A DNA stretch of 63,992 nt, filler included. It is 5 parts of 5 records of this genome, joined end to end, with 100 filler letters (N's around TTAATTAATTAA, not from the genome) between each part and the next. Parts side by side here need not be neighbours in the genome. Positions count along the whole stretch, not along the records: positions 20,822 to 50,232 come from DRR723986_8695; 4 more parts are not named here. One strand, given 5' to 3'. Positions 19,864 to 40,508 of the stretch are shown here, piece by piece; the stretch's first letter is position 1, and each line of letters starts with the position of its first letter. Under the pieces are notes generated by a model. The model did not search any database. It was not told the origin of the DNA and saw only the letters and a program-made list of their open reading frames with translations. A program made the translations under genes and the position numbers.

Positions 19864-19921
19864 GGTAAAGCCCATTTCCCAAATCCGTCAGGCGGGGCAT
19901 GGGCGGGGGCCGGGGCAATTT

Positions 19922-19955
19922 AAAAACCCCGCCACGGGGCTGGTCCGTGGCGGGG
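19922..19955 (-). terminator. Intrinsic terminator after sqr
   Basis: 11-bp stem CCCCGCCACGG / CCGTGGCGGGG followed by a T-run on the minus strand. Confidence 0.75.
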
Positions 19956-19965
19956 CGGTTTGGGT

Positions 19966-20721
19966 TTAGCTGGCGCTTACCTTTTGGGGCTTGGCCAGCC
20001 ATTCTTTGCCACGCAGCATGGCGCGCCAGTAAACCGGGGGCAGAATTTGTTCTTTCAGCATCCACGCCGCCCGCGAGGGTTTGGTGCCATCAATCACCCA
20101 TTTTGGGAAACTGGGCAGCAAGGCCCCGCCATAGCCAAACTCGGCCAAAACGATCTTGCCCCGCTCGACCGTCAAGGGGCACGAGCCATAGCCGTTATAT
20201 TGCGCCGCGGGCGAATGCCCGTCGATATCAGCGCATAGGTTTTCGGCAACCACTGGCGCCTGCATCCGCGCCGCAGCAGCGGTTTTGGCGTTGGGTGCAT
20301 TCATCACATCGCCCAAAGACCAGATGTTATCATAGGTCTTGTGGCGCAGGCTGGCTTGGTCAACGTCAACCCAGCCGGCAGCATCGGCCAATGGCGACAC
20401 GCGAATGAAATCTGGGGCCACTTGCGGCGGGCAGACATGCATCATGTCAAATTCCACCTGCACACGGGTTTTTTCGGTGTCGGGCTTTGCCACCTCGAAT
20501 GTGGCGGTTTTGCTGGCCCCATCCACCGCCACCAGATTGTGGAAGAAATCCAAACTGGCGCCGTATTTCTGCACATAGCTTTCCAGCGCAGGCACGTAAT
20601 CTTTCACGCCAAACAGCACACCACCGGCATTCATGAAATGGATATCGATGTTTTTCAGCCGGCCCTGTTGTAGCCAATGATCGGCCGACAAATACATGGC
20701 CTTTTGCGGCGCACCGGCGCA
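19966..20721 (-). CDS. sqr: Type II sulfide:quinone oxidoreductase, C-terminal part (5' truncated)
   Basis: CAGAPQKAMY at the contig edge, LGDV..PNAKTAAA, YNGYGSCPL (second catalytic Cys), LAEFGY. Confidence 0.85.
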   Translation of the reverse strand, partial: CAGAPQKAMYLSADHWLQQGRLKNIDIHFMNAGGVLFGVKDYVPALESYVQKYGASLDFFHNLVAVDGASKTATFEVAKPDTEKTRVQVEFDMMHVCPPQVAPDFIRVSPLADAAGWVDVDQASLRHKTYDNIWSLGDVMNAPNAKTAAAARMQAPVVAENLCADIDGHSPAAQYNGYGSCPLTVERGKIVLAEFGYGGALLPSFPKWVIDGTKPSRAAWMLKEQILPPVYWRAMLRGKEWLAKPQKVSAS

Positions 20722-20822: not shown

Positions 20823-22307
<1,485 letters not shown>

Positions 22308-25047: not shown

Positions 25048-25470
25048 CTATACGATATCGCGCAATAATTGGATCAATTGATCTGTTTCGGTTTTTCCAA
25101 GTCGATCAAGTATTGCTGCGTCCTGATCCTCGATCTCTTGCCGGATCTGCATCATGCGTTTTCGGCCAAGAGCGGTTGGCAATACATTGATCTGACGGTG
25201 ATCGTTTTGCGCGACCTGCCGGTGTACCAACCCGTCAGAAACCATGCGGTCCACCAACTTTGTCAGCGTCGGAGGATTCATCAGAACGATCTCGGCCAGC
25301 TCGCCCATAGTCAGGCGGTTTCCCATGTCCAACGTTTCCAGAATGCGCCAGGCTTCGACCTGTATGCCGTGTTTGCGCAGGCGCGCGTTTAGCGATGTTG
25401 TTACCTTTCGATGAGCTGCAGCCAGCGCGTAGGAAAGGTAGTTCTGGATTGGGCTACTGCTGTTTTCCAT
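25048..25470 (-). CDS. MarR family transcriptional regulator
   Basis: WRILETL..LTMGELA..PTLTKLVDRM..GLV.R..DHR; ATG at 25470 after GGTGAG. Confidence 0.9.
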   Translation of the reverse strand: MENSSSPIQNYLSYALAAAHRKVTTSLNARLRKHGIQVEAWRILETLDMGNRLTMGELAEIVLMNPPTLTKLVDRMVSDGLVHRQVAQNDHRQINVLPTALGRKRMMQIRQEIEDQDAAILDRLGKTETDQLIQLLRDIV

Positions 25471-25571
25471 GTGTCTCACCAAAGTCTGATGGGGAGAATT
25501 TAGTTGACTTGGAAATTAAATTCAAATGGAATGTGTCAATTCCCGTTCCATGTGGAAAGGGCGTGACCGCC

Positions 25572-26693
25572 ATGACACCGCTTTCAATTGTTCCAAGAAT
25601 TCCAACAGAGTTGGAGGAACTGCAGGAATACTCCTTGTCACGCAGCAAGGGAACCTATCGGGTTGCGCTGCTCATACCGTTGTGCGGCTCAGCTGGGCTG
25701 TGGGCGCCGTCTTGCATCTCCAGTGCGCAAGTCGCCGTGGAAGAGCTGAATAAAAGTGGCGGTATCGACGGGCGCAAGGTTCAACTCATCATGATTGACG
25801 CCGCTTTGGAAGCCAGCATTTCAATCGAAGAGACGGTCAATGATCTCATTGCGACCGGATCCATCGACGCGATTGTCGGCATGCATATTAGCGCGATCCG
25901 TCAGCGTTTAAGCAAAGTCGTCAGACAGCGGATACCCTATGTCTATACCCCTCTCTATGAGGGTGGAGAAAGTACCGCAGGCTTGTTCGCCATAGGTGAA
26001 ACCCCGCAAGAGCAGCTGGGGCCATCCATGGAATTGATCCAAAAACAATATCGACCCGACAGTTGGGCCTTGATTGGCAACGACTATGTCTGGCCCCGCA
26101 CGTCTCATCTTTTTGCAAAATCAAAGCTGCGTGAAATGTCAGTTGGCCTGACATATGAAAAGTACTTGCCGTTTGGGTCACACAACATCGCCCGATATGT
26201 GGAAGAAATCGGAGCCTCGGGCGCAGAGGCTGTTTTGATTTCTCTTGTCGGGCAGGATGCGGTGGCATTCAACCGGGCCTTTGGCAATGCAGGTCTGCAC
26301 AATCGTATTGTGCGGTTGTCCTGTGCCGTCGAAGAAAATGGCCTGTTGGCTGGCGGGTCACGCAACAGCAAACGACTTTTTGTAGCGTCTTCGTATTTCG
26401 CCGCCCTTCCTACCGAAGCGAACGCTGCTTTCAAAGAGCTGTACTATGGGCTGCACGGAGATCAGGCTCCGGCTCTGAATGCGCTTGGGCAATCGACATA
26501 CGAAGGGGTTCATTTTCTGGCCGGATTGATGCAGGGGAACGCCAATGTCTGGCGCGAACATTGCGTTTCAGTCGCACTTCCTGTGATTCATCGCAGTGGT
26601 CGAAAGGGGTTGTCTTCGAACACGAGTGAGCGTGCGCCGATCTATCTCGCCCGTGCTGACGGGTTACGATTTGAGGTAATAAAGGAAATATAA
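25572..26693 (+). CDS. AmiC-like cytoplasmic amide-sensing protein (type 1 periplasmic-binding fold, no signal peptide)
   Basis: LAV/VAVEELN..GGIDGR, GMHISA.R, YVYTPLYEGGE, IGNDYVWPR; no hydrophobic leader. Confidence 0.75.
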   Translation: MTPLSIVPRIPTELEELQEYSLSRSKGTYRVALLIPLCGSAGLWAPSCISSAQVAVEELNKSGGIDGRKVQLIMIDAALEASISIEETVNDLIATGSIDAIVGMHISAIRQRLSKVVRQRIPYVYTPLYEGGESTAGLFAIGETPQEQLGPSMELIQKQYRPDSWALIGNDYVWPRTSHLFAKSKLREMSVGLTYEKYLPFGSHNIARYVEEIGASGAEAVLISLVGQDAVAFNRAFGNAGLHNRIVRLSCAVEENGLLAGGSRNSKRLFVASSYFAALPTEANAAFKELYYGLHGDQAPALNALGQSTYEGVHFLAGLMQGNANVWREHCVSVALPVIHRSGRKGLSSNTSERAPIYLARADGLRFEVIKEI

Positions 26694-26827
26694 CAGTAGG
26701 TTATACGTTATTATTTTCCTTTTCAACTTTTTACTTGAATTGGAAAATAAAATCTTCCACGCTTTACGGCAATGATCTGCCCCGCTTTTGGGATGCGGAA
26801 TAAAACGTAAAGTCGGGGAGAACTGCC

Positions 26828-28423
26828 TTGCTCTGGATTATTTTGTTGGTGCTTGCCGCACTGCTTGTCCTTGTCGGGATTTGGTTCCTTCACCGCTTCT
26901 ATGCCAAGGCGACACTGGACACCGCGCTGGTACGAACCGGTTTTGGGGGTCGACGTGTCGTGACCGATGGCGGCTGTGTTGCATTGCCCATCCTGCACCA
27001 AATGCAAAAAGTTTCGATGGGGGCGCTGAATTTTTCGACCAAACGTGAAGGGCGCGACGCTGTCCTGACACGCGACCAAATGCGTGCCGATATCACATTC
27101 GAATTTGAATTGAGGGTCTCACCAACCGAAGTTGGGATTGCGACAGCTGCTCAGGCTCTGGGGCAGCGGATTGCACGGGGCGGCGATACGATCCATGAGG
27201 TTCTGTCCGGTGCTCTGGTCAATGCCATCCAGAATTCTGCGGCATCGCGCACTCTGGAAGAAATTCACCTGGATCGCAGCGGGTTCGCACAAGATGTGGC
27301 CAAAGCCATAGACGAGCAAGCCGAGCGTCTTGGCCTGAAACTTGTGTCAGCTTCGTTAATTTCGGTGGATCAAAGCGACCAGACCCAGTTAAACGAAAAC
27401 AATGCCTTCAATGCTCAGGGTATGCGACGTCTGGCCGAATTGGTGGCAGACCAACGCAAAGCACGGGTTCGTGTTGAGACAGAGGCGGAAACTGCGGTAC
27501 GCGAAAGCCGCCTGGCGCAGCACCAGCGGCAGTTGGAGCTTCAACGCGAAGAACGCGAGGCCGAAATCGCCCAGAATGAGCACCTCAACAAGCTAGAGGT
27601 GGATGCGAAATCCCGGGAAAACCAAGCCCGTGATCTGGCAACACTGGCAAGCGAGACTGCACGGATCGAGAATGATCGCCGTACCAAGGCCACGCAGATT
27701 GAGCAGGACGAAACCCTCAGAAAATCTGAGATGGCGGCCATACTTTCTCTCGAAGAAACCAAGATCAGCAACGACATCCAACTTGCCAGAAAAAGAGCCG
27801 AAGAAGCCGAGGCCAAGGCAGCAGAAGAACAAGCCCGGGCCATGGTGATCCTGGCGGCTGAACATGTACAGGCTCAGAAAGAGCGCGCCATAGCCGAGCG
27901 GGAACGTGATATCGCCCGCATCAGACAGGAAAAAGAGCTGGAGCTGGAGGACGCACGGGTCAAGCGCGACGTTGACACGATGCTGACCAGAGCACGGGCA
28001 GATGCGACCGCCGCGGTGCAGGCTGCCGACGCGAACAAAGCCCGGATGGAAGCCGAAGCCGCCGGAAACGTGGCGCTGAACTCGGCAGAAAACACACTGA
28101 GCGAAGCCGTCATTCGTATGCGTCTTGAAGAACGCAAGCTGGACCGTCTGCCCGAAATCATGACGCAGATGATGAAGCCGGTGGAAAAAATCGACTCGAT
28201 AAAGATCAACCAGATTTCCGGTGCGGGCACCGGTGTTGGTGGCAACGGCACCGCTGAGGGCGTGGATGGCGCATTTGGAGCCGCCATGGATCAGATCCTT
28301 GGCATGGCGGTTCGTCTGCCCGCGATGAAGCAAATGGGCGAAGAAATCGGGTTGGACTTTGATGCCAACCTGGCCGGACGGACCGCCGATTACGCCAATC
28401 GTATCAAACCCAAGAAAGAATGA
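26828..28423 (+). CDS. Flotillin/SPFH (band 7, YqiK-type) protein
   Basis: N-terminal TM, ALVRTGFGG..V..GG..LP SPFH start, long EA-rich coiled coil, C-terminal LPEI..MKPVEKIDSIKI flotillin motif; GGGGAG RBS then TTG. Confidence 0.88.
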   Translation: MLWIILLVLAALLVLVGIWFLHRFYAKATLDTALVRTGFGGRRVVTDGGCVALPILHQMQKVSMGALNFSTKREGRDAVLTRDQMRADITFEFELRVSPTEVGIATAAQALGQRIARGGDTIHEVLSGALVNAIQNSAASRTLEEIHLDRSGFAQDVAKAIDEQAERLGLKLVSASLISVDQSDQTQLNENNAFNAQGMRRLAELVADQRKARVRVETEAETAVRESRLAQHQRQLELQREEREAEIAQNEHLNKLEVDAKSRENQARDLATLASETARIENDRRTKATQIEQDETLRKSEMAAILSLEETKISNDIQLARKRAEEAEAKAAEEQARAMVILAAEHVQAQKERAIAERERDIARIRQEKELELEDARVKRDVDTMLTRARADATAAVQAADANKARMEAEAAGNVALNSAENTLSEAVIRMRLEERKLDRLPEIMTQMMKPVEKIDSIKINQISGAGTGVGGNGTAEGVDGAFGAAMDQILGMAVRLPAMKQMGEEIGLDFDANLAGRTADYANRIKPKKE

Positions 28424-28472
28424 CGCAAAAACTGCGCGAACAATCCGTAAGACATCAGGGAGGAAACTTAAA

Positions 28473-29693
28473 ATGTCAGTGAACAGACGCACCTTTTTAT
28501 CCGGAACGGCAGCCATCGCGGGGGTTTCAATGTTACCGCGGGCCACATTGGCCGGAGACACGATCAAACTGGGCTCAATTCTCGACACGTCGGGTATCTT
28601 TGATGCTTATGGCAAGCCGATGGATATGGCGATGCGTCTTGCTGTAGATGAAATCAACGCTTCGGGCGGTCTGCTTGGCAAGCAGGTCGAAGTGCTGGCA
28701 TATGACACCCAGTCGGACATGGCGCTCTACTCTCAATACGGTCAGCAATTGACCCGGCAGGATAAAGTGGATGTCGTTCACGGGGGTATTCTATCGGCCT
28801 CGCGTGAGGCGATCCGCCAGACTATGCGCAAGACCAAGACCTTGTATTTCTATAACGTGCTCTACGAAGGTGGTGTCTGTGACCGCAACACTTTTATCAA
28901 CGGGGTCACACCAGCCCAACAGGTCGAGGCACTGGTGCCCTACGCCATGGGAAAATCGGGCAAGAAAGTCTATATTCTTGCGGCTGACTACAACTACGGC
29001 CAAATCACAGCACGCTGGATCCAAAAATTTGTCGCCGACAATGGTGGCGAGACCGTAGGGGTCGACTTCTTCCCGCTGGATGTTAGCGACTTTGGCTCGA
29101 CCATCGCCAAAATCCAGACGGTTGGCCCGGATCTGGTGATCGCGCCGCTTGTCGGCGGGGCGCATTTGTCATTCTTCCGTCAATGGGCAGCGGCCGGCAT
29201 GAAAGATCGCATTCCGCTGGCATCGACCACGATGGGTGTCGGCAACGAGCACAAAGTCCTGACCCCCGAAGAAGGCAATGGCATCATGGTGGCTTACAAC
29301 TACAGTCAGGAACTGGATACGCCTGCCAACACCGCCTTTAAGGAAAAATGGACCGCGGCCTATGGCGGCAGCGATATGATCCACGAAATCGCGGTTTCCA
29401 ATTACCAAGGCTTGCTGACCTGGGCCGAAGCCGTTCGCCAGGCGGGTTCGATTGAGCGTGACGCGGTCATTGCCGCGCTAGAGGGCGGGCTCTCTATCGA
29501 CGGCCCAGCTGGCAAGGTAGCAGTAGATCCCAAGACCCACCATGCCGTGCTTGATGTCCATATCATGGAGATCGAAAATCAGGGCATGCGCGTGATCGAA
29601 ACGCTGCCACAGCGCCAGCCGATTGATACCCAATCAGTTTGCGATCTCTCAGCTAATCCGGACGACAACACCCAGTACGAAATCCAGATCTAA
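28473..29693 (+). CDS. Urea/short-chain amide ABC transporter substrate-binding protein (UrtA/FmdD-like), Tat-exported
   Basis: NRRTFL twin-Arg leader; LAVDEINASGGLLGK, SASREA, YNVLYEGG, AADYNYG. Confidence 0.85.
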   Translation: MSVNRRTFLSGTAAIAGVSMLPRATLAGDTIKLGSILDTSGIFDAYGKPMDMAMRLAVDEINASGGLLGKQVEVLAYDTQSDMALYSQYGQQLTRQDKVDVVHGGILSASREAIRQTMRKTKTLYFYNVLYEGGVCDRNTFINGVTPAQQVEALVPYAMGKSGKKVYILAADYNYGQITARWIQKFVADNGGETVGVDFFPLDVSDFGSTIAKIQTVGPDLVIAPLVGGAHLSFFRQWAAAGMKDRIPLASTTMGVGNEHKVLTPEEGNGIMVAYNYSQELDTPANTAFKEKWTAAYGGSDMIHEIAVSNYQGLLTWAEAVRQAGSIERDAVIAALEGGLSIDGPAGKVAVDPKTHHAVLDVHIMEIENQGMRVIETLPQRQPIDTQSVCDLSANPDDNTQYEIQI

Positions 29694-29786
29694 CCAAACA
29701 ACACGTTCGATGCAGGGCGGCCCTCGCCGCCCTACGCCCCCCTCGCGGGGGAACAATCGAGCTTTGCCCAAGGAAAACTGTAAGCG

Positions 29787-30653
29787 ATGGACCTCTCATT
29801 CGTCATAATGGTGGAAATGCTCTACGCGGTCTCCTCACTGATCCTGATCAGCGCAGGACTTGCCGTCGTGTTCGGCATGATGAAAGTGATCAACCTTGCC
29901 CATGGCGAGTTCATGATGATGGGCGGTTACGCGACTATCACAGCCGTGCAACTGGGCATAAATATCTTTGTCGCAATGTTGGTGATTGCCCCAATCACAG
30001 TTGGGCTGATCGGTCTTATCGTAGAGCGTTTGGTAATCCGGCATCTATACGGCCGGCTGGTCGACACCATGCTGGCCACCTGGGGACTGAGCCTGTTCTT
30101 TATCGGGTTGGCCACAATGATTTTTGGCAACACCACGACGGGTATTTCCACACCGATCCCGGGGTTCACGATCGGTAACTATCAGATCAATGGGTATAAT
30201 TTCTTTATCATCGTGATCTCTATCCTGCTTTTGATGTCGATGCTTGCCGTGCTCAAGGCAACCCGGGCTGGGCTGATTGCAAGAGGCACGATGCAACGAT
30301 CTGACATTGCTGCGGCGCTTGGATATAGCCCAGACCGCATCTATATGGCGACCTTCTTTTGCGGCTCGGCGCTCTCTGGTTTGGCGGGTGCTGTGCTTGC
30401 CCCACTGGTCGGGTTGGTGCCCACCTCAGGCGGCGCCTACATCGCCAAGGCGTTCATTACAGTCATCGCCGGTGGGCCGTCACTCATCGCCGGTCTGTTT
30501 TCAAGCGCCGGGCTGTTTGGATTGGTCAATCAAATTTTCACCTTCTCGATCTCTCCCGTGATGGGAGAAGTTGCGCTTCTGGTCGCAGCAGTCATCTTGC
30601 TCCGCCTGCTGCCGCAAGGCATTACCGGGAAATTCTTCAAAGGAAAATTGTGA
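29787..30653 (+). CDS. Branched-chain/urea-type ABC permease (UrtB/LivH-like)
   Basis: GLAVVFGMMKVINLAHGEFMMMGGY, LATWGLSL, AFITVIAGG. Confidence 0.9.
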   Translation: MDLSFVIMVEMLYAVSSLILISAGLAVVFGMMKVINLAHGEFMMMGGYATITAVQLGINIFVAMLVIAPITVGLIGLIVERLVIRHLYGRLVDTMLATWGLSLFFIGLATMIFGNTTTGISTPIPGFTIGNYQINGYNFFIIVISILLLMSMLAVLKATRAGLIARGTMQRSDIAAALGYSPDRIYMATFFCGSALSGLAGAVLAPLVGLVPTSGGAYIAKAFITVIAGGPSLIAGLFSSAGLFGLVNQIFTFSISPVMGEVALLVAAVILLRLLPQGITGKFFKGKL

Positions 30654-31690
30654 TGCCGGGCAACCTGCAAAGAGATGTCTTTACGACGATCAGCGTCACG
30701 GCCTTGTTGATCTGGGTCATGCCGATGATGATCTCCACTTACACACTGACAGTCCTGATCATATACGGAATGCTTGGCCTGAGCCTTGGCCTGATCTGGG
30801 GGTTCGGCGGTATCTTGTGTTTCGGTCAAGCGGCTTTCTTTGGCTTGGGAGCCTATACATATGCCATAGCCGCAATCAATATCGGCGAAAGCACCGGGCC
30901 GATGATCCTTGCAGTGCTGGTTCCGGCCATTTTTGCAGCGCTTCTTGGGGCGCTGATGTTTTATGGGCGGCTGACGGATGTCTATCTTGGCGTCATCACT
31001 TTGGTCGTGACGCTGATCCTGTTCAAGTTCATAAACTCTACGGCCGGGCCGCAATACGTGATCGGAAAAGCCCGTCTGGGCGGCTTCAACGGCATTCCCG
31101 GTTTTCAAACGTTGAACGTGCCGGGAAATCCTGATGCCTATATCTGGGGGGATGCGTATTTCTATGTCTGCGCTGTGATCCTAGCCATCGTTTTCCTGTT
31201 GGTCTCGGTCCTGCTGCGCTCCAGCTTCGGTCGAATTGCTGTTGGGATCCGCGAAAACGAAACCCGGGTTTCCCTAATGGGTTACGACATTCGCGCCCGT
31301 AAAACGGTCCTGTTCGCTGCCGGAGCAGCCATCGCCGGGCTTGCCGGGGCGCTGTTTGCCAATTGGGGTGAGATCGTCACCCCCACTCTATTTTCGCTAG
31401 GTCAATCGGCCGAGATCATCATTTGGTGCATCGTCGGGGGGCTTGGCACGCGCCTGGGCCCGATCCTCGGCGCTGCTGGACTTGCCTATCTCAAGTTTCT
31501 TTTGGGACAACAAAGCCTTGTCGACAACACACTGATCACCGGTCTCATTCTGGTGTTGTTCGTCCTGTTCCTGCCACGCGGAGTCGTACCTGCCTTGGCC
31601 GGGATCTGGCAGATCAGTTTTGGTCGTCGCCCCCTTGGGCGGATTCATCAGGCTCGACGATTGCGCAACAGGGAGCGGAATAATGGCTGA
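30653..31690 (+). CDS. Branched-chain/urea-type ABC permease (UrtC/LivM-like)
   Basis: LIWGFGGILCFGQAAFFGLGAY, FGR..GIRENETR..GY, IVGGLGT..GPILGA. Confidence 0.9.
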   Translation: MPGNLQRDVFTTISVTALLIWVMPMMISTYTLTVLIIYGMLGLSLGLIWGFGGILCFGQAAFFGLGAYTYAIAAINIGESTGPMILAVLVPAIFAALLGALMFYGRLTDVYLGVITLVVTLILFKFINSTAGPQYVIGKARLGGFNGIPGFQTLNVPGNPDAYIWGDAYFYVCAVILAIVFLLVSVLLRSSFGRIAVGIRENETRVSLMGYDIRARKTVLFAAGAAIAGLAGALFANWGEIVTPTLFSLGQSAEIIIWCIVGGLGTRLGPILGAAGLAYLKFLLGQQSLVDNTLITGLILVLFVLFLPRGVVPALAGIWQISFGRRPLGRIHQARRLRNRERNNG

Positions 31691-32399
31691 AATTGTTCTC
31701 GAAACTCATGGGCTGACCATGCGATTTGGTGGTGTCGTCGCTTCCAACAATGTGGATTTCAAGCTACGCGCGCGCGAATTGCGATGTCTGATCGGCCCAA
31801 ATGGTGCAGGAAAATCGACCTTCTTCAAATGTGTGACTGGCTTACAAACCCCGACAGAAGGTCAGGTATTCATGCGGGGGCAGGAAACGACCCGCTGGAT
31901 GCCTCACGAGATTGCCTCGCTGGGCGTGGGGATCAAAACCCAGACGCCAAATGTCATGGACTCTCTAAGTGTGTTTGAAAACATCTGGCTCGCAGCGCGC
32001 CGGTTTCATCGACCAACAGAGGCGAGCCGCAAAACCCAAGAGGTGATTGAACGGCTGGCTCTGAATTCAATTGCTCGAAATGATCTTGGGCAATTGGCCC
32101 ATGGTGAACGCCAACGTGTCGAGCTGGGTCTGGTCGCGGTGGGCGACCCTTGGCTCGTGCTACTGGATGAACCCGCAGCCGGGATGAGTGCAGAAGACGT
32201 CGACCGCATGACCAGCATCATTCACGAGCTCAACAAAACCGCCGCCATCGTAATCGTAGAACATGACATGCAGTTCATCCGTTCAATCGCCAAAGACGTG
32301 ACAGTTTTCCATCAGGGCGCGGTCTTGATGGAAGACCATGTCGAACAGGTCATGTCGAACCCGACCGTGCGTAATGTATATCTTGGAAAGAAGGCCTGA
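31683..32399 (+). CDS. ABC ATP-binding protein (UrtD/LivG-like)
   Basis: Walker A GPNGAGKST, LAHGERQ signature, LLDEPAAG, VEHDM. Confidence 0.93.
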   Translation: MAEIVLETHGLTMRFGGVVASNNVDFKLRARELRCLIGPNGAGKSTFFKCVTGLQTPTEGQVFMRGQETTRWMPHEIASLGVGIKTQTPNVMDSLSVFENIWLAARRFHRPTEASRKTQEVIERLALNSIARNDLGQLAHGERQRVELGLVAVGDPWLVLLDEPAAGMSAEDVDRMTSIIHELNKTAAIVIVEHDMQFIRSIAKDVTVFHQGAVLMEDHVEQVMSNPTVRNVYLGKKA

Positions 32400-32400
32400 C

Positions 32401-34758
32401 ATGGCGGATGACGTCACTGAAATACTAGAGGTAAAGGGCCTGTCGGGGGGATATGGCAAAGTGCCGATCCTGCACGGGATAGAGTTCTCGGTTGCCGAAA
32501 ATGAGGTTGTCGGCATTCTTGGCCACAACGGTATGGGCAAGACGACCCTATTGAAAACGATCATGGGCTTTTTGCCCGCTAGCTCTGGATCGGCACGGTT
32601 TCATACCACTGACATTACCCGCATCTCGCCTTTCGAACGGGCCGGGCTTGGGTTGGGATACGTGCCTCAGGGGCGTGGGATATTCCCGCAGCTTTCGGTG
32701 CGTGACAACCTCCGCTTTGCTTGGCACGAATATTCAGGTGCCTCGGAAAACGACGTGATGGAGGCCGTGCTCTCTGATTTCCCACGCTTGCGGCCGCTTC
32801 TCAATCGAGAAGGCGGGGCTTTGTCCGGAGGCGAACAGCAATTGCTGGCTTTGGCCCGTTGTTTGATGGGAGATCCGGATTTCCTGCTATTGGATGAGCC
32901 GACCGAAGGCATCCAGCCCTCGATCATCGAAGAAATGGCCGAGACCCTTCTTCAACTTCGCAAAAGCCGGGGATTGTCAATTCTTCTTGTCGAGCAGAAT
33001 TTCGACTTTATCGCCGATCTGTCGGATCGGGTTCTGGTTCTCGAACGCGGACGGATCACCGCAGAGTTGAGCCGCACCGATCTGTCCGATCAGACCAAAG
33101 TTGACCAGTTCCTGGGGTTTGGCGCAGCGAGGTCAACCCGCGGGCAGGCAGCATCACAACCCACTGGCGTTGTTCCGAAAAAATCTGAAACCCCAGCACC
33201 AGCCCGGCAAATATCCGAGCCGCTGCCCGCATATTTGGTGACAAACATGACTGTGAAACGACCCACCCTTTCGCAAATGCGTGATATGGCCACTCGATTT
33301 GGAATGAGCTTGACCGATACAGAACTGGCCGAGTTTTCCGAAATCATGGAGCCCTATATTCAGGCCTATGACCGGCTGGATTCCACGCCAGACAATTTGC
33401 CCCCGGTCAGGTACCCCAGATCGCCGGGACATTTCCCCGATTTCGCCGAAAACCCCCTGAATGCCTGGTATGTGAAAACTGACGTTCGGGGCGCACCTGA
33501 CGGTCCGTTGCGAGGTAAACGAATAGCTCTGAAGGACACCATATGCCTTGCCGGGGTGCCGATGATGAACGGATCATCGATTATGGAGGGCTATACGCCG
33601 GAAATCGACGCGACCATTGTCACACGGATGCTTGACGCCGGCGCTGTGATCGCTGGCAAGTCCCATTGTGAGAACTTTTGCCTATCCGGCGGCTCGCATA
33701 CCAATGCGAAGGGGCCGATCCAGAACCCATGGAAGCACGGGTACATGGCGGGCGGTTCATCAGGTGGATCTGCTGCGCTGGTTGCAGCCGGAGAAGTCGA
33801 CATGGCCATCGCCGGGGATCAGGGCGGTTCCATTCGCATTCCGTCGTCGAATTGTGGCGTGTACGGAATGAAGCCCACACACGGATTGGTGCCTTACACG
33901 GGTGTGATGCCTATCGAACAGACCATCGACCACGTCGGGCCAGTGACCAACACAGTCGCGGACAATGCCCTATTATTGGAGGTTCTGGCAGGAGACGACG
34001 GGCTGGACCCCCGCCAATACTGCCCTCAGACATTTCGCTATACCGAAGCGCTGGGGCGTGGGGCACAGGGGTTACGGATCGGTATACTCAAGGAAGGGAT
34101 ACATCGCCCTGAAAGCGATGTAGATGTCGACCAGAAGGTTCTTGCTGCCGCCGAAAGATTCCGCGAGCTTGGTGCCCGGGTAGAAGAGGTTTCGATCCCC
34201 GAGCATCATCTGGCGGTGGATTGCTGGACCGCGATCACCGTTGAAGGTCTACAAGACCATATGATGCATGGCAATTCCGGCGGAACCAACTACCGGGGGC
34301 TGTTCCTGCCGTCGATGATGGACCACATGGCACAGTGGCGATCCCGTGCTGATGAATTGACCCATTCGCTTAAGGTTTGCATGTTTTTGGGCGAGTTTTT
34401 TCAGAAACAGTATCGCGGACGTTTCTACGGCAAGGCACAGAACCTGATGCGCAAGGTGAACGAAAAATACGCAGACGCCCTAACGCAATACGACCTGCTT
34501 TTGATGCCGACAGTTCCGATGAAGCCACAGGAAATTCCACCCGCCGATTGCTCAATCAGTCTCTATGTTCAGCGGGCCTTTGAGATGATCGGCAACACCG
34601 CGCCATTCAATGGCGGACTGCCCGCTATGAACGTACCCTGCGGTTTAAGCGAAGGATTGCCAATTGGTATGATGCTCGTCGGGCCAAAATATGGTGAACT
34701 GAAAATATACCAGGCCGCCCATGCTTTCGAGCAGAGCGGTGACTGGCGCGCCATGTAA
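32401..34758 (+). CDS. Fusion protein: ABC ATPase (UrtE/LivF-like) + amidase-signature amidase
   Basis: Single open frame of 785 aa. GHNGMGKTT, LSGGEQQ, LLLDEPTEG, VEQN are followed by a linker, then ALKD, CENFC, GGSSGGS, GDQGGSIRIP. Confidence 0.88.
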   Translation: MADDVTEILEVKGLSGGYGKVPILHGIEFSVAENEVVGILGHNGMGKTTLLKTIMGFLPASSGSARFHTTDITRISPFERAGLGLGYVPQGRGIFPQLSVRDNLRFAWHEYSGASENDVMEAVLSDFPRLRPLLNREGGALSGGEQQLLALARCLMGDPDFLLLDEPTEGIQPSIIEEMAETLLQLRKSRGLSILLVEQNFDFIADLSDRVLVLERGRITAELSRTDLSDQTKVDQFLGFGAARSTRGQAASQPTGVVPKKSETPAPARQISEPLPAYLVTNMTVKRPTLSQMRDMATRFGMSLTDTELAEFSEIMEPYIQAYDRLDSTPDNLPPVRYPRSPGHFPDFAENPLNAWYVKTDVRGAPDGPLRGKRIALKDTICLAGVPMMNGSSIMEGYTPEIDATIVTRMLDAGAVIAGKSHCENFCLSGGSHTNAKGPIQNPWKHGYMAGGSSGGSAALVAAGEVDMAIAGDQGGSIRIPSSNCGVYGMKPTHGLVPYTGVMPIEQTIDHVGPVTNTVADNALLLEVLAGDDGLDPRQYCPQTFRYTEALGRGAQGLRIGILKEGIHRPESDVDVDQKVLAAAERFRELGARVEEVSIPEHHLAVDCWTAITVEGLQDHMMHGNSGGTNYRGLFLPSMMDHMAQWRSRADELTHSLKVCMFLGEFFQKQYRGRFYGKAQNLMRKVNEKYADALTQYDLLLMPTVPMKPQEIPPADCSISLYVQRAFEMIGNTAPFNGGLPAMNVPCGLSEGLPIGMMLVGPKYGELKIYQAAHAFEQSGDWRAM

Positions 34759-34770
34759 GGGAGCCAAGCT

Positions 34771-36528
34771 ATGTCTATCCTCAATGAAAGCCTTGCAAGC
34801 CGGATTTCCGGTTGGTCCAATGCCCGGGACACCCCTGCGGAAGCCACCGCGCCGACGAATGGTCTGTCCTATGTACGCGGAGCATGCGAACCGCCACTTG
34901 CCTATGTAACCATCCCCCAACTTTTAAGGGATGCGGTTTCTCGCTTTGGGCCGCGCGATGCTGCGGTGTTCTGCGAACAGAATGTCCGGATGAGTTATTA
35001 TGATTTGGATCGGGCTGTAGATGAACTCGCCTCGGGGTTTCTGGCGCTCGGGTTGGAAAAGGGGGACCGCGTCGGGATCTGGTCTCCGAACCGGTACGAA
35101 TGGGTCCTCACGCAATTTGCAACTGCACGGGCAGGCCTGATTTTGGTCAATATCAATCCGGCTTATCGCTTGACCGAGTTGGAATATGCGCTGAACAAAG
35201 TTGGCTGTAAGGCGCTTGTCGCAGCAAAGTCCTTTAAAACATCAAACTATGATGAAATGATCCGTTCTCTTGCACCCGAGCTGGAACACGCCTCGCCAGG
35301 CCGGTTGCAAGCGGCCAGACTGCCTCAATTGCGCAGTGTTATCCTCATGGATGATGCTCCGGGACCGGGGGCTTATTCGTTCAAACAGCTTCAGAACCTT
35401 GGCGGACCCGCACAACAATTGCGGTTATCACAGATCGACAGTGCGCTCAGCCCGGATGATGCGATCAACGTTCAGTTCACCTCTGGCACAACGGGCAGCC
35501 CAAAAGGCGCGACGCTTTCGCACTATAACATCGTCAATAACGCACGCTACGTCACCGACCGTATCCACCTGACAGAGACTGATCGGCTGGCCATCCCGGT
35601 GCCGCTCTATCATTGTTTTGGCATGGTCATGGGGGTTCTCGGCGCGGTCAGCAAAGGGGCTGCAATGGTGTTCCCAGGCGAAGCATTTGACGCCAATAGC
35701 ACACTTGACGCACTGGCTCAGGAAAAGTGCACAGCGGCTTATGGTGTGCCCACCATGTTCGTGGCCATGCTCGAAGCGCTCGAGGCAAAACCCCGTGATC
35801 TGTCCAGCTTGCGAACGGGCATAATGGCCGGTGCTCTTTGCCCCGTCGAAATCATGCAGCGGGTCAATTCCGAGATGAACATGGGGGATGTCACGATCTG
35901 CTATGGGATGACGGAAACCTCGCCTGTGTCCTTCCAAAGCTTTGTCGATGACACTACTGAAAAGCGGTGCGAAACCGTGGGCCGAGTGCACCCGCATCTT
36001 GAAGCAAAGATCGTCGGTCAGGATGGTCAAATTCTACCGGTTGGCACCCAGGGCGAGCTCTGCACACGCGGCTATTCCGTGATGAAGGGATATTGGGAAG
36101 ATGCCGAAAAGTCAGCAGACAGTATTCAAGATGGATGGATGCACACCGGCGATCTTGCGGTGTTCGATGCCGACGGATTTTGTACGATCGTTGGGCGGGT
36201 GAAAGACATGATCATCCGCGGGGGTGAAAACATTTACCCACGTGAGGTCGAGGAATATTTGATACGCCACCCTTTGGTCAGTGAGGTCCAGGTCTTTGGA
36301 ATTCCAGACGAAAAATTCGGTGAGGAAGTCTGTGCATGGGTTATTTCCAAGGCAGGTGAGACGCTGATCGAAGACCAACTGCGGGACTTCTGTCAGGGCC
36401 AGATCGCCCATTTCAAAGTTCCCAAGCACATCCGTGTCGTTGACGAATTGCCGATGACAATCACAGGGAAACCGCAAAAATTTGTCATGCGGGACATGAT
36501 GGTAGAGTGGCTTGAAAAGCGAACATAA
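34771..36528 (+). CDS. AMP-dependent acyl-CoA synthetase (FACL/ACSF2-like)
   Basis: [48 protein letters not shown]. Confidence 0.93.
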
Positions 36529-36734: not shown

Positions 36735-36752
36735 ATTGATGACAAGTCAACA
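36735..36752. promoter_or_regulatory. Candidate MarR operator ATTGATGACAAGTCAACA, copy 1
   Basis: Exact reverse complement of 37260-37277; contains the palindromic core TGAC-AA-GTCA. Confidence 0.7.
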
Positions 36753-36765
36753 AAGGGTGACCTGC

Positions 36766-37251
36766 ATGTCGATACGCGAGAAACAGCTTGAAGCGGAGTT
36801 GCGGAAGGTACGGGAGCTGGAAAGCAACCTGACCTTTCACATCGCGGTGATCAATAAGGTGTTGGAGCAGCAGACCACTCAGTTGATCCAAGATACGCCG
36901 CTGAGTTTGACGGGATACCGCGTGCTGCGGGTTGTGAGCATTTTTGACGAAATCACCATCTCTGAACTGAGCCGGCAAATGGTTGTCGACCGAGCGTTAA
37001 CAAGCCGCGTGACAGCCTCGCTGGTGAAACAGGGTTTCGTTGATTACCACGAAGATGCCGCAAATAAACGCAAGAAATTGATCCGGTTAACCCCCCAAGG
37101 CGCGGCGTTGGTCGAGACGTTGGCGCCGCGCTTTGAAAAGCGGCGGGCAATGTTGGAAGGCGCGATCGGAGAGACGGCGCTAAAGGGACTGTGGCAAGCC
37201 TTTGACTCGATTTCAGGGTTAGAACTCGATATCTCAAAATTGATCAAATGA
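36766..37251 (+). CDS. MarR family transcriptional regulator
   Basis: YRVLRVV..ITISELSRQMVVDRALTSR..L..GFV..NKRKKLIRLTPQG; ATG at 36766 after AGGGTG. Confidence 0.88.
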   Translation: MSIREKQLEAELRKVRELESNLTFHIAVINKVLEQQTTQLIQDTPLSLTGYRVLRVVSIFDEITISELSRQMVVDRALTSRVTASLVKQGFVDYHEDAANKRKKLIRLTPQGAALVETLAPRFEKRRAMLEGAIGETALKGLWQAFDSISGLELDISKLIK

Positions 37252-37259
37252 TGTATTTA

Positions 37260-37277
37260 TGTTGACTTGTCATCAAT
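37260..37277. promoter_or_regulatory. Candidate MarR operator, copy 2, overlapping a TTGACT -35 box of the tctC promoter
   Basis: TGTTGACTTGTCATCAAT; CATGAT -10-like hexamer at 37286-37291. Confidence 0.7.
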
Positions 37278-37332
37278 GATCAAACCATGATGCCCCAGTG
37301 GAACTGAACATGTTCGTATTTGGGAGGATCAA

Positions 37333-38289
37333 ATGTTCAAGGTATTTGCGACTGCAGCCCTAGTTGCTGTGACCACTCTGAGCGGTGCCGGAGCATCTTT
37401 TGCAGAAGAGTGGAAACCAAATGGACCAATCACGCTAAAGATTTCGTTTCGTGCCGGTGGGGGGACTGATACACAGGCCCGTCTGATCGCATCGGAACTG
37501 ACCAAGCGCCACGGTTGGGAGATCATTCCACAGAACGTTGCCGGCAAAGGCGGGGCTGTTATGGCCCGTGATCTGGTCGATGATCCTGCTGACGGCCTGT
37601 CCATCGGTATGACAGTGACAGAGGCGCTGACCTACAGCCCCCATGCCATCCGTGATGCGGGTTACGCCTTAGAAGATTTTGATCTTCTCACCACCACTGC
37701 GGGCACGCAGATGGCGCTGTTCGCCAAAACCTCTCGGGGCTGGAATAGCTTGCAAGATGTGATCGCCGCTGCAAAGGCAGGCGAATCTATCTCGGCTGGC
37801 GCATTTAGCCCTCGTGTTGCAGATGCGCTGTATTTGTTGTCACAAAAAACCGGCGTAGATTTCAAAACCGTAATGGTGAAAGGCGGCAAAGGCAGCATCA
37901 ATGGTGTCATGGCCGACGATCTGGACATTGCCTGGGGCGCAGGTCCGCAAAACAAGCTGGTCACCAGCGGCGAGCTGGTCAATCTTGTGTCCGCGGAAGA
38001 CGAAGCCCTTACCGCGTCACCGGATGCCCCCCTGCTGTCGGAATTTGGAGTCCCTTACACTTTTGGGGCAAAGTTCCTGTTTATTGCCCCCCAGGGCATA
38101 CCAGCCGAAGCCAAGATCACCCTGACCAATGCCATCATTGAAGTGATCAACGACAACAACACTGAGGCCAACGCCTTTATTACCAAAGCCTTTTCTGGCG
38201 TACAGGCCATCCACGGACCCGAGCTGGAGGCCTATATGGTTCAAAAGGCGGCCGACGATGCTGACTTGCTGAAAATCACAGCTGAATGA
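37333..38289 (+). CDS. Tripartite tricarboxylate transporter substrate-binding protein (TctC/Bug)
   Basis: Signal peptide, P..PITL.I.F.AGGGTD..AR, N.AG.GG, ADG. Confidence 0.88.
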   Translation: MFKVFATAALVAVTTLSGAGASFAEEWKPNGPITLKISFRAGGGTDTQARLIASELTKRHGWEIIPQNVAGKGGAVMARDLVDDPADGLSIGMTVTEALTYSPHAIRDAGYALEDFDLLTTTAGTQMALFAKTSRGWNSLQDVIAAAKAGESISAGAFSPRVADALYLLSQKTGVDFKTVMVKGGKGSINGVMADDLDIAWGAGPQNKLVTSGELVNLVSAEDEALTASPDAPLLSEFGVPYTFGAKFLFIAPQGIPAEAKITLTNAIIEVINDNNTEANAFITKAFSGVQAIHGPELEAYMVQKAADDADLLKITAE

Positions 38290-38303
38290 GCGTCTCCAGA
38301 CAC

Positions 38304-38329
38304 GTAGAGGGCAACACTTTGCCCTCTAC
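38304..38329. repeat. Perfect 11-bp stem-loop between tctC and tctB (probable mRNA stabiliser or attenuator)
   Basis: GTAGAGGGCAA-CACT-TTGCCCTCTAC. Confidence 0.7.
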
Positions 38330-38367
38330 CGTTGCAGGCTTGAGAAAGCACATAAAGGGAGAGCGGT

Positions 38368-38934
38368 ATGTCACCTCGGCAATCCGAGTTCATCTTTGCG
38401 CTGTTTGGCATCGGTCTTGGTGGTGTGATCCTTGGCATATGGATCCCACAAGATATTGACACCGGTATGATCGAGACGTTTCGGCGTCAGACCGTCATTG
38501 GCGATGCCTTTGTTCCGGTGATCGCTGGCGCGGCTATCCTGCTTTGCTCCGCTCTACATCTGCTGCAAACATTGATGCGCAGGTCCAGCTCAAGCGACAG
38601 GTTTGCATCTGCAACCCTAAGTTTGGCCGATCTCATGCTGTTGGGCTTGTTTTTTAGCATCATCGCCGGATCGTTGTTGATCATGTTCTGGGCGGGCCCG
38701 GCTTTGTCCCTGCTGAGCGAAAATGGCTATCGCGCCCTGCGAGGGCAGTTTCCTTACAAATACGCTGGTTTCTTCCTTGGCGGCACCGCGATGTTGATGG
38801 GGTGCATGACCTTGATTCAGGGACGGTTCCGATATGGGACATTGGGGATCGCGGTCCTGTCCACACTCTTTCTGATCGCTCTGTTCGACCTTCCGTTCGA
38901 CAGTATCATTTTACCACCGAACGGAGACTGGTGA
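38368..38934 (+). CDS. TctB-like small membrane subunit
   Basis: About 5 TM segments, C-terminal LF..LP.G motif, located between tctC and tctA. Confidence 0.7.
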   Translation: MSPRQSEFIFALFGIGLGGVILGIWIPQDIDTGMIETFRRQTVIGDAFVPVIAGAAILLCSALHLLQTLMRRSSSSDRFASATLSLADLMLLGLFFSIIAGSLLIMFWAGPALSLLSENGYRALRGQFPYKYAGFFLGGTAMLMGCMTLIQGRFRYGTLGIAVLSTLFLIALFDLPFDSIILPPNGDW

Positions 38935-40508
38935 TGGGTGTTTTTGACTACATCTGGGCGGGTGTTCTGGCCGTCTTTCAGGGTCCCGAAGCCTTTTCAC
39001 TGCTGGGCGTATCGGTGTCTATTACCCTGATCATGATCGCATTTGGCTTTTTTGCCGGCATCATCGGTGGGGCCACGCCTGGTTTGAGCGGTCCGTTCAT
39101 GATGGCGGTGTCGCTGCCCATTCTGCTATCTAGCTTTGGCTTTGGCCAAGAGGCACTATTGCCGGTGTTCGGATTTCTGGTTGGCGTGATGAAGGGCGCC
39201 ACGGTGGGGGGCGCTGTTCCGGCGATCTTGTTCAACACGCCGGGCACACCCGATGCTTTGCTGACGACATTGGATGGATATCCGATGGCTCAGAAAGGGC
39301 AGGCAGGAAAAGCCTTGAAAGTTGCGCATTTCTCCTCTGCGTCGGGGGATACGTTTTCCGATCTAGTGCTGTTCACTTGCGCACCCTTTCTAGCGGTTGC
39401 CGTGGAAAGCTATCTGGGCTTTCCGGAAAAGGCAGCACTCATCATTTTGTCCCTATCATTTGTCGCGGCCGTTGTTGGTGCCTCTCCCACCAAAGGGGTC
39501 TTTGCAGTTGGTCTGGGTCTTATGATCGCGTCGATCGGCACCGGCGAAGACAGCTATCCGCGCCTGTCTATGGGGTTGGATGCCCTCGCCAATGGCATCC
39601 CGTTGATCACGGCCGTGCTTGGTGTGCTGATCCTGGGGGAAATCTTTGTCTCGTTCGAAAACATGTGGCGCGAAAGACAAGCCAGCAAGATAGTCACGCC
39701 AGTGAAACAAAGCACAGACAATCGGCTGAGCTGGCAAGAGCGCCGTGTCCTGATGCCCTTTGTTGCGGTGTCGGCACTGATTGGCACGTTGGTCGGTGCA
39801 TTGCCCGGGATTGGGTCAACTCTGGCCGCAACGTTGGGCTATGCGACGGGGCAGAAAATGCACAAGGGCCCGGTGCCCTTTGGTGAGGGGACTCCAGAGG
39901 GGATCGCCGCAACCGAAGCCGCGAACTCTTCGGTATCTGGTGCCAACCTGATCCCGGTGTTGTCACTGGGCATTCCCGGCAATGTGGGCGCTGTTTTCCT
40001 GATCCTAGCTGCGGACAGTATCGGTGGCTTCAATCCGGGGCCTTCGGTGTTTCGATTCAGCACTCACGAAGTGAACCCCGAGCTGGTCATTGCCTTTGGA
40101 TTGTTCACCTGCATGGCGCTGGCCAATCTTTTGAACTGGACCACAGGCGCGCGTTTTATGTCGCTGGTCGGAGGGATGACACGCATTCCCAAAGCAATGC
40201 TGATGCCCTTTGTGCTGTTGTTGACCCTCACAGCAATCTACGTGCAGGAAACGCAATTTTCCTCCATGTTGTTTGCGCTCGGGTTTGGGGTGCTGGGCTA
40301 TCTCATGCGCAAGTTCTCGGTGCCGATTTTGCCCTTTGTTATCGCGTTTATCCTGTCTCGCAATTTGGAAGACACCATCCGCCAAGCCTTTGCTGTCACG
40401 GATGGCGATCCATACTTCCTGTTCCGCAGCCCCGCATCCATTGCCTTTGTCGCCCTGTCTTTTGTCGTGATCCTCTTTTTCTCACACCGGCGCAAAGCTG
40501 AAATCTGA
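38934..40508 (+). CDS. TctA family large transmembrane subunit
   Basis: GATPGL, GGAVPAILFNTPGTP, TLDGYPMA, GIAATEAANS, LSLGIPG. Confidence 0.92.
   Translation: MGVFDYIWAGVLAVFQGPEAFSLLGVSVSITLIMIAFGFFAGIIGGATPGLSGPFMMAVSLPILLSSFGFGQEALLPVFGFLVGVMKGATVGGAVPAILFNTPGTPDALLTTLDGYPMAQKGQAGKALKVAHFSSASGDTFSDLVLFTCAPFLAVAVESYLGFPEKAALIILSLSFVAAVVGASPTKGVFAVGLGLMIASIGTGEDSYPRLSMGLDALANGIPLITAVLGVLILGEIFVSFENMWRERQASKIVTPVKQSTDNRLSWQERRVLMPFVAVSALIGTLVGALPGIGSTLAATLGYATGQKMHKGPVPFGEGTPEGIAATEAANSSVSGANLIPVLSLGIPGNVGAVFLILAADSIGGFNPGPSVFRFSTHEVNPELVIAFGLFTCMALANLLNWTTGARFMSLVGGMTRIPKAMLMPFVLLLTLTAIYVQETQFSSMLFALGFGVLGYLMRKFSVPILPFVIAFILSRNLEDTIRQAFAVTDGDPYFLFRSPASIAFVALSFVVILFFSHRRKAEI

Follow-up and report, generated by a model that had tools for sequence, protein, structure and literature searches.

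A conserved nine-gene cassette with an ABC ATPase-amidase fusion and its own flotillin: a candidate system for import, hydrolysis and CoA activation of a carboxamide

Amidase operons of the amiEBCRS kind, as in Pseudomonas aeruginosa, set the gene for a cytoplasmic AmiC-like protein next to those for an amidase and an amide importer of the Liv/Urt type, and among amide-inducible amidase operons of this kind is one on an enterobacterial plasmid, on which amiE-amiC-amiR is accompanied by ATP-binding cassette (ABC) genes (PMC13209695). Here we describe a block of nine genes, at positions 25048-36528 of a stretch of DNA of 63,992 nucleotides (the window), which resembles such operons and departs from them in several ways. 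Its open reading frames (ORFs) contain no ANTAR domain detectable with Pfam, and in place of an ANTAR/AmiR protein there is a divergent MarR-family regulator; its hydrolase is an amidase-signature enzyme and not the nitrilase-superfamily AmiE; ATPase and amidase form a single polypeptide; and a flotillin and an acyl-CoA ligase have been added. We read the block as probably being a cassette for the import of an exogenous carboxamide, its hydrolysis at the transporter and the activation of the product with CoA, under the control of an AmiC/MarR pair and organised by the flotillin.

The nearest natural relative lies on a plasmid of Paracoccus methylovorus, where an unfused operon runs from a periplasmic binding protein (SBP) through permease, permease, ATPase, ATPase and amidase to an AmiC-like protein and an ANTAR protein; the transporter order is the same as in the cassette, and the amidase is 46% identical. 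With UrtABCDE/FmdDEF the cassette shares the five-component architecture and the Pfam families, and the best NCBIfam matches are to Urt models; it differs in that its components fall below the Urt cutoffs, its SBP carries a twin-arginine (Tat) leader and its UrtE-like subunit bears an enzyme. That enzyme belongs, like the amidase of Rhodococcus sp. N-771 (3A1K) and nthAB-linked amidases, to the PRK07235 subfamily, aligns with 3A1K over the full length and keeps the triad, but it is fused to an ABC ATPase and does not adjoin genes for nitrile hydratase (NHase). The aldoxime-nitrile cluster of Pseudomonas chlororaphis B23, reportedly the subject of Hashimoto et al. in 2005, is said to have an amidase gene followed by one for the acyl-CoA synthetase AcsA, an arrangement which the cassette shares; in contrast to that cluster the cassette has neither aldoxime dehydratase nor NHase, and it adds the importer, the flotillin and the MarR/AmiC pair. 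A pairing of AmiC-like and MarR-type proteins is also said to occur in Rhodococcus rhodochrous J1, in a different phylum and with different genes under regulation: there the AmiC-like NhhC/NhlC and the MarR-like NhhD reportedly regulate NHase clusters.

Flotillins, too, have been tied functionally or genomically to specific membrane transport proteins. The heme ABC permease IsdF of Staphylococcus aureus is described as dependent on the flotillin FloA, a precedent for an ABC importer; flotillin-associated rhodopsin gene clusters have likewise been described, and the YqiJ-YqiK pair is a further instance. FloA of S. aureus is a general housekeeping scaffold encoded elsewhere, in contrast to the cassette flotillin, a dedicated paralogue within a transporter operon; compared with YqiJ-YqiK, the cassette flotillin is without an NfeD/YqiJ partner and its transporter carries a tethered enzyme. 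The preliminary description of the locus held that no characterised operon of this composition was known. This stands in so far as a literature search, with subscription journals largely outside it, turned up no description of an ATPase::amidase polypeptide, of a dedicated operon flotillin with an ABC importer or of the nine-gene composition; the locus is nevertheless less unprecedented than it was made out to be, as unfused relatives with AmiC-like and ANTAR proteins exist. Each module has a precedent, and it is the combined architecture that appears to be new.

Other parts of the preliminary description were borne out on closer analysis. With families called from Pfam and NCBIfam and gene starts refined from ORF translations and the DNA, all nine genes were identified in 25048-36528 with the families that had been proposed, and the ORF coordinates show the MarR gene divergent and the other eight co-oriented (Table 1). 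The seven genes from flotillin to ligase, described beforehand as tightly packed, are all separated by less than 100 nt (spacers of 49 nt and 93 nt, a 1-nt overlap, an 8-nt overlap, then 1 nt and 12 nt), and a gap of 134 nt precedes them after amiC; the seven genes may be co-transcribed. For amiC itself the longest ORF, from 25395, was judged an over-extension and the start at 25572 was adopted.

The gene set had also been expected to recur in other genomes if the genes formed a unit, and it does. A scan of one genome per species yielded 196 stretches that encode a relative of the fusion, and the best 79 loci were analysed by tblastn with the window proteins, a locus being called assessable for a gene when it extends far enough to contain that gene; similarity to the fusion (72-98% identity) was the basis on which these loci were picked, and the counts describe the cassette family and not bacteria at large. 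All nine genes are found in 69 of the 71 fully assessable loci, with identical order and strand in every nine-gene locus and near-identical spacing, an arrangement that is far beyond chance; counts for single genes are given in Table 1. In three loci (L024, L006 and L035) 0.7-3.5 kb are inserted between amiC and the flotillin gene. The carriers comprise many genera of Paracoccaceae/Roseobacteraceae, Hoeflea and other Rhizobiaceae, Sneathiella, Roseibium, Nitratireductor and a metagenome-assembled genome of Granulosicoccus. The fusion (~78% identity) is furthermore encoded on plasmids of Sulfitobacter alexandrii, Sulfitobacter sp. THAF37 and Pseudosulfitobacter pseudonitzschiae, and on the one plasmid of these three that was examined, that of S. 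alexandrii, the full nine-gene block was confirmed, under generic RefSeq names (MarR, 'substrate-binding domain-containing', 'flotillin domain-containing', ABC parts, 'amidase', 'AMP-binding'). From this distribution the block is, in all appearance, a self-contained and horizontally mobile nine-gene cassette.

More distant relatives were sought in 201 genomes sampled evenly from the bacterial family. Among them are eight with the close fused form (78-98% identity, one of them G177), five with a divergent fused form (56-60%) and four with an unfused adjacent pair of ATPase and amidase genes (52-56%). In the divergent fused loci, a clade in which the fusion is 55-58% identical to that of the window, the genes for flotillin, SBP, permease, permease, ATPase and fusion still follow one another in this order, except that one locus ends at a contig end before the flotillin gene is reached, and their flotillins are 39-41% identical to that of the window. 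All four unfused loci have transporter and amidase genes without flotillin and without ligase; L090, which is one of the four, also encodes MarR, AmiC and a further amidase. Beside two of the divergent fused cassettes other genes were noticed: in L087 (12189-13872) a CN-hydrolase and a pyroglutamyl peptidase, and in L089 (431-5020) homoprotocatechuate-type genes, namely a CHMI isomerase, an aldehyde dehydrogenase, an extradiol dioxygenase-like gene and a GMC oxidoreductase, which, being a single case, were not adopted as a clue to the substrate. A short-chain dehydrogenase/reductase (SDR) of 253 residues neighbours the cassette in L087, L089 and L090.

The fusion of ATPase and amidase, which the preliminary description had reported from the window, proves to be genuine and, by the pattern of its conservation, under selection. 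No stop codon interrupts the frame from ATPase to amidase in any of the 77 full-length loci, the remaining two of the 79 ending at contig ends, and the best 120 protein clusters that match the fusion, from a search that scored only the 8000 candidates with most shared words, are 781-807 residues long, 81-98% identical, and contain both Pfam domains without exception. Among cluster representatives at 50% identity there is essentially one full-length fused cluster (818 residues, 70% identity) plus fragments, the rest being stand-alone amidases of ~500 residues, and the fusion is therefore one family. Between FLGFGAARSTRG and VTNMT(V/I)KRPTLSQMR lies the linker, which across the 79 loci is hypervariable in sequence and length (30-70 residues) and has a high content of Pro, Ala, Ser and Thr. 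In an AlphaFold2 model, confidence is good for the ATPase domain (pLDDT of 66-91 in blocks of 10 residues), and residues 240-282, with a pLDDT of <35 and no secondary structure, are predicted to form a disordered linker; confidence is uneven over the amidase part, the alignment being shallow, and the overall mean pLDDT is 65.6. In the four unfused relatives the urtE-like gene ends in an in-frame TGA that is followed by ~30 in-frame codons and then by the amidase Met; since the window protein retains this ancestral Met as residue 283, the fusion arose when the stop codon was lost and the spacer came to be translated. Two details of the junction and the frame were recorded besides. In the unfused L090-L093 the amidase gene shares its frame with the 5' ATPase gene, with one or two TGA codons in between, which we read as ordinary termination, and in G177 the fused gene (C21:33765-36183) matches as two adjoining pieces (residues 1-209 and 208-785), suggestive of either a frameshift or an error of sequencing within the ATPase part.

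The enzyme at the end of this linker scores 757.2 bits against PRK07235 (cutoff 545) over model positions 1-505 of 506, and aligns to residues 6-499 of the Rhodococcus amidase 3A1K with 454 bits, the N-terminal helical part included. Opposite K96, S171 and S195 of 3A1K, which we take to be the Lys96/Ser171/Ser195 numbering of its catalytic Ser-cisSer-Lys triad, stand K, S and S (K378, S453 and S477), none of which varies among 39 homologues. It is an enzyme of the Pfam family Amidase (PF01425) and not a CN_hydrolase. Plasmids often carry stand-alone homologues (57-59% identity), and on a Klebsiella plasmid one such gene (58% identity) lies directly 5' of nthA, nthB and an accessory gene; together with the PRK07235 score and the 3A1K alignment, this neighbourhood marks the amidase as one of the NHase-coupled type.

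The importer that carries the amidase is complete in the HAAT (Liv/Urt) layout, with a Peripla_BP_5/6 binding protein, two BPD_transp_2 permeases and two ABC_tran ATPases, all above their Pfam cutoffs. Against the urea-specific models the scores are lower: the SBP reaches 356 bits with the urea_ABC_arch model (cutoff 495), the UrtB-like permease 242 bits with TIGR03622 (cutoff 374), the UrtC-like permease 237 bits with TIGR03727 (cutoff 576), the UrtD-like ATPase 235 bits with TIGR03411 (cutoff 304) and the UrtE-like domain, residues 30-259 of the long ORF, 261 bits with TIGR03410 (cutoff 286). By these family assignments the transporter is a HAAT importer of the urea/small-amide class, a relative rather than an orthologue of the urea transporter. 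The SBP finds its nearest solved relatives in 8TG1, in urea-binding proteins and, more weakly, in AmiC, and is predicted to be a Tat-exported periplasmic protein of the Urt/Fmd/AmiC class. The ligase scores 806 bits against PRK12583, slightly below the cutoff of 832; its identification with DmdB or any other named ligase was rejected, the match to DmdB (6IHK) being just 175 bits.

The AmiC-like protein, which likewise has a Peripla_BP_6 domain, has no hydrophobic N-terminal leader and is hence predicted to be cytoplasmic, a candidate amide sensor. It matches urea-binding proteins and AmiC (1PEA) in the PDB, and a profile of its family finds AmiC 1PEA with E = 4e-21. In AmiC the residues S85, Y104, Y150, Y152 and T106 presumably contact acetamide; among 48 cassette sequences the positions aligned to S85, Y104 and Y150 are invariant, and in the alignment to 1PEA that of Y152 is an invariant Trp and that of T106 a Pro. 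Three cysteines (C38, C48 and C251) are also invariant in the 48 homologues, two of them within PLCGSAGLWAPSC near the expected ligand cleft. The MarR domain lies above its Pfam cutoff (47.2 bits vs 27); HpaR is its best NCBIfam match, at 64.7 bits with a cutoff of 121.2, and was not accepted as its identity. A predicted complex of MarR and the AmiC-like protein scored 0.80 and one control 0.65, so that the prediction carries no weight for binding in either direction.

The two proteins may act through a shared cis element. Each of the two intergenic regions, MarR/AmiC and amiC/flotillin, holds one strongly conserved AT-rich block in alignments of 66-69 loci (69 for MarR/AmiC), and both blocks contain TTGGAAAWTAAAWTC on the operon strand, before amiC (25509) and before the flotillin gene (26740). 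There are two exact copies in the window, a count that is circular by itself, as the pattern was derived from those same sites. At up to two mismatches the motif is found in the MarR/AmiC region of 46 of 70 loci, in the amiC/flotillin region of 42 and in both of 25, and outside the two regions three times in 1.67 Mb. It is a candidate for a common operator/promoter element of amiC and the run from flotillin to ligase, and the MarR protein is the obvious candidate to bind it.

The layout of the flotillin is an N-terminal hydrophobic anchor followed by HRFYAK, an SPFH domain, a long E/A/R-rich stretch and the Flot domain, and it exceeds the Pfam cutoffs for Band_7 (62.3 bits vs 23.6) and Flot (104.8 bits vs 27). 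It is not an equivalog of Bacillus FloT (57 bits, cutoff 700), and no ORF for an NfeD/YqiJ partner adjoins it among the window ORFs examined with Pfam. A Flot domain is encoded in 72 of the 201 family genomes. In 12 of the 13 genomes with a fused form a flotillin gene lies ~4.4 kb 5' of the fusion, the thirteenth being the one that ends at a contig end, and in none of the four unfused genomes is there one near the amidase: the flotillin is co-retained with the fused forms only. As the fused forms look monophyletic, this link is one of long-term co-retention and not of repeated independent gain, and the flotillin is, to judge from its presence in close and divergent loci, a fixed member of the cassette.

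Flotillins accompany other ABC operons in the same family. A second system was traced from long open frames among the ATPase matches of the 201-genome sample; in L097:4653-13688 (-) and L098:3165-12367 (+) it comprises permease, permease, SBP, ATPase, an ATPase::UPF0261 fusion (723-728 residues), a PEP-hydrolase-like protein, a flotillin (529 or 976 residues) and an SRPBCC protein, and this flotillin is 30% identical over the full length to that of the window. Among the best 39 UPF0261 matches, 27 lie in frames of at least 680 residues, taken as fused from frame length except in L097 and L098, where Pfam confirms the fusion; 24 of the 27 have a Flot match on the same strand and contig 3.6-5.1 kb away, and the remaining three have no Flot match or a Flot fragment on another small contig. 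None of the ten matches in frames of 411-487 residues has a Flot match on its contig, and two more are cut and ambiguous; in the unfused L099 and L100 the UPF0261/PEP-hydrolase pair occurs without this transporter. No paper that treats UPF0261 and flotillin together was found among the best 10 of 8,115 literature matches. In a third context, ABC ATPase, aldehyde dehydrogenase, SDR and flotillin genes follow one another on one strand in four of five loci examined (L101:6856-11777, L102:2159-7224, L103:6766-11708 and L104:2087-7303), the fifth (L106) having the SDR-flotillin pair only, and YqiJ-flotillin pairs occur in two loci of the family (L107 and L109); two additional flotillin-context loci were left out, the ORF filter having skipped their flotillin ORF. 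A maximum-likelihood tree of 21 flotillins places each operon context in its own well-supported clade and makes the flotillins of close and divergent amidase cassettes sisters (support 100/99); in this tree the branching between clades is unresolved, the root arbitrary, and several sequences are trimmed N-terminally by the start-codon rule.

Taken together, import, hydrolysis at the transporter and trapping as a CoA ester is the most economical reading of these components. An amide in the periplasm would be captured by the Tat-exported SBP of the urea/short-amide class and carried inward by the Liv/Urt-type (HAAT) importer, whose second ATPase subunit bears the amidase on a disordered tether of 30-70 residues; such tethering would have the amide hydrolysed to acid and NH3 at the transporter's cytoplasmic face, and the acid could then be activated by the acyl-CoA ligase, encoded 12 nt downstream. 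The leaderless AmiC-like protein would sense cytoplasmic amide in cooperation with the divergent MarR, which may replace the ANTAR antiterminator of the classical relatives, and control would probably be exerted through the motif that precedes both amiC and the flotillin gene. The flotillin, anchored by its N-terminal helix and encoded first in the structural run, may organise or enclose the transporter-enzyme complexes in the membrane. The substrate is probably a small aliphatic or aryl-aliphatic carboxamide, a range with which the amidase family and the class of the SBP both agree.

Several observations weigh against this reading, or against the part that individual genes are given in it. 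The MarR/AmiC pair is present in none of the five divergent fused loci, the ligase (55-59% identity) in four of them and not in L089, and among the close loci L037 is without MarR and AmiC and L064 without ligase, which makes the pair and the ligase dispensable add-ons. As binding protein, permeases and ATPases all stay below the equivalog cutoffs of the urea transporter, the ligand cannot be read from the family models; nor does the ligase help, with a best PDB match of 253 bits over part of its length and no close characterised or solved relative. The AmiC-like protein is 23% identical to the cassette SBP and need not bind the same molecule. A scan for consensus promoters gave three sites where shuffled sequence had a mean of 8.2, i.e. 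fewer than expected, and a terminator scan gave 18 terminator-like sites, none of them clear, with 13.5 expected; both scans are uninformative. The sequencing runs listed as containing positions 26500-36490 are DNA metagenomes, with no RNA run among them. In the third flotillin-linked ABC operon the ATPase is free of any fused enzyme, which shows that a flotillin can occur without a fusion. Finally, at 50% identity the fused forms fall into essentially one cluster, and their flotillins into one clade; the link between fusion and flotillin in the amidase system may go back to a single ancestral event.

This last point bears on the view that flotillin and fusion are evolutionary passengers, the fusion being a neutral loss of a stop codon. 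A single historical accident could indeed explain both, and the unfused relatives without flotillin evidently function. Against this, the flotillin is kept in all 73 close loci that can be assessed and in the divergent clade despite drift to 39-41% identity, the frame is unbroken in all full-length loci while the linker varies freely, and two other ABC-plus-enzyme operons of the same family each have a flotillin lineage of their own. We consider the passenger view unlikely.

Equally unlikely, in our estimation, is that the cassette forms the final part of a nitrile pathway, with the main task of processing amides made inside the cell by NHase, or that its importer brings in nitriles. The amidase does belong to the NHase-coupled subfamily, and in P. 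chlororaphis B23 a nitrile pathway is said to pair amidase with acyl-CoA synthetase. NHase alpha genes were moreover found in all five carrier genomes searched and in none of 14 control genomes, though NHase may simply be common in the whole family. These alpha, beta and accessory genes (L080-L084) occupy a conserved spot next to secG and pyrG, with no amidase within the ~3.5 kb read at each of the five loci, and the cassette amidase could serve them. However, they lie at least 70 kb from the cassette or on other contigs, so that a linkage of the two was rejected, and the cassette moves among genomes and plasmids without NHase; the urea/amide-class SBP and the cytoplasmic AmiC-like sensor, for their part, point to an amide as the molecule transported and sensed. 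The 'nitrile capture' of the preliminary description finds no support in the cassette: Pfam detects neither nitrilase nor nitrile hydratase in the cassette, and in five of five carriers the NHase genes are unlinked to it.

We regard it as quite improbable that the cassette, instead of importing a carboxamide for CoA activation, scavenges nitrogen from urea-like or ureido compounds such as urea, biuret, allophanate or formamide. It is true that the urea ABC models are the transporter's best family matches, that urea-binding proteins are the PDB neighbours of the SBP, and that allophanate, AtzE and biuret hydrolases, which are seen as weaker matches, are amidase-signature enzymes too. Yet every urea-transporter model remains below its cutoff where PRK07235 is above its own, the allophanate/AtzE models reach 130-194 bits compared with 757 bits for PRK07235, and the conserved ligase (78 of 79 loci) argues against such substrates, as it would be without a role if the product were carbamate or CO2. 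Least credible of all is that the amidase domain is mainly a regulatory appendage of the ATPase, acting by trans-inhibition with cytoplasmic amide or acid: it sits at the C-terminus, and C-terminal regulatory domains are common on the ATPases of ABC importers, but conservation is strict for the catalytic triad and for most of the fold, a tether of such length, disorder and hypervariability is unlike what a docked regulatory domain would have, and the cassette has no other amidase for the chemistry.

The carboxamide-importing cassette matters first of all for the study of flotillins, which in bacteria have mostly been examined as scaffolds of a general kind whose numerous clients are only loosely delimited. 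In the cassette a flotillin is built into one transporter operon and kept across at least four orders of marine bacteria, also on plasmids, and the unfused, flotillin-less relatives are a natural control, by which the service of a flotillin to one defined client becomes directly testable. The ATPase-enzyme fusion offers a clean natural case of coupling between transport and metabolism on an ABC importer. The cassette also marks an amide that is evidently competed for by coastal, algal-, coral- and sediment-associated roseobacters, the habitat labels being taken from the DNA metagenomes containing the region and from the plasmid sources; no such amide stands on the current list of recognised marine substrates. 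We speculate further, as a rather doubtful generalisation, that operon-encoded flotillins may form a class of flotillin-caged ABC metabolons, in which a flotillin dome or corral would cover a patch of importers on the cytoplasmic face with the ATPase-tied enzyme inside. It would fit that fused forms keep the flotillin and unfused amidase relatives do not, and that each operon type has its own flotillin lineage; if true, the amidase cassette would exemplify, together with the UPF0261-fused importer, a membrane-attached nano-reactor that traps the product before a small membrane-permeant substrate leaks back.

Table 1. Genes, protein segments and cis elements of the nine-gene block, in window coordinates, with the number of assessable loci in which each gene is present
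Feature	Position	Strand	Assignment and remarks	Present/assessable loci
MarR-family regulator	25048..25470	-	divergent from the other eight; Pfam MarR_2 2.5e-12	70/71
cis motif TTGGAAATTAAATTC	25509..25523	+	MarR/AmiC intergenic region; candidate operator/promoter element	
AmiC-like ligand-binding protein	25572..26693	+	Peripla_BP_6 7.5e-53; start MTPLSIVPRIP, no signal peptide	71/72
cis motif, second copy TTGGAAAATAAAATC	26740..26754	+	5' of flotillin gene	
Flotillin	26828..28423	+	Pfam Flot 4.3e-30, Band_7 8e-17	73/73
Periplasmic binding protein (SBP)	28473..29693	+	Peripla_BP_6 2.7e-80; NRRTFLS twin-arginine leader	74/74
Permease 1, UrtB-like	29787..30653	+	BPD_transp_2	75/75
Permease 2, UrtC-like	30653..31690	+	BPD_transp_2	76/76
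ABC ATPase, UrtD-like	31683..32399	+	ABC_tran	78/78
ATPase::amidase fusion, 785 residues	32401..34758	+	UrtE-like ATPase, linker and amidase-signature amidase	
Fusion part 1, UrtE-like ABC ATPase domain	32401..33117	+	residues 1-239	
Fusion part 2, linker	33118..33246	+	residues 240-282; P/A/S/T-rich, predicted disordered	
Fusion part 3, amidase-signature amidase	33247..34758	+	residues 283-785; ancestral Met retained as first residue	
Acyl-CoA ligase, AMP-binding family	34771..36528	+	AMP-binding 1.2e-95	78/79

The genes on either side are not part of the unit: those of the window are common only to the near-identical relative L001 (proteins 93-99% identical), whose genome served as a proxy for that of the window in genome-wide searching, and the flanks otherwise vary among loci. 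In the ORF listing EamA, RlmF and a GyrB-like fragment lie upstream of the block, and directly 3' of it a second MarR gene is followed by TctC, TctB and TctA of a tripartite tricarboxylate transporter (36736-40508). The GyrB-like ORF (20868-22307, +) begins at position 101 of the DNA_gyraseB domain and has the Toprim and C-terminal domains without the ATPase part; the ORFs just 5' of it (19899-20700) have no Pfam match, and near 20 kb of the window the GC content drops from ~0.62 to 0.50-0.53. This region could represent a truncated gene, the edge of an island or an assembly joint.

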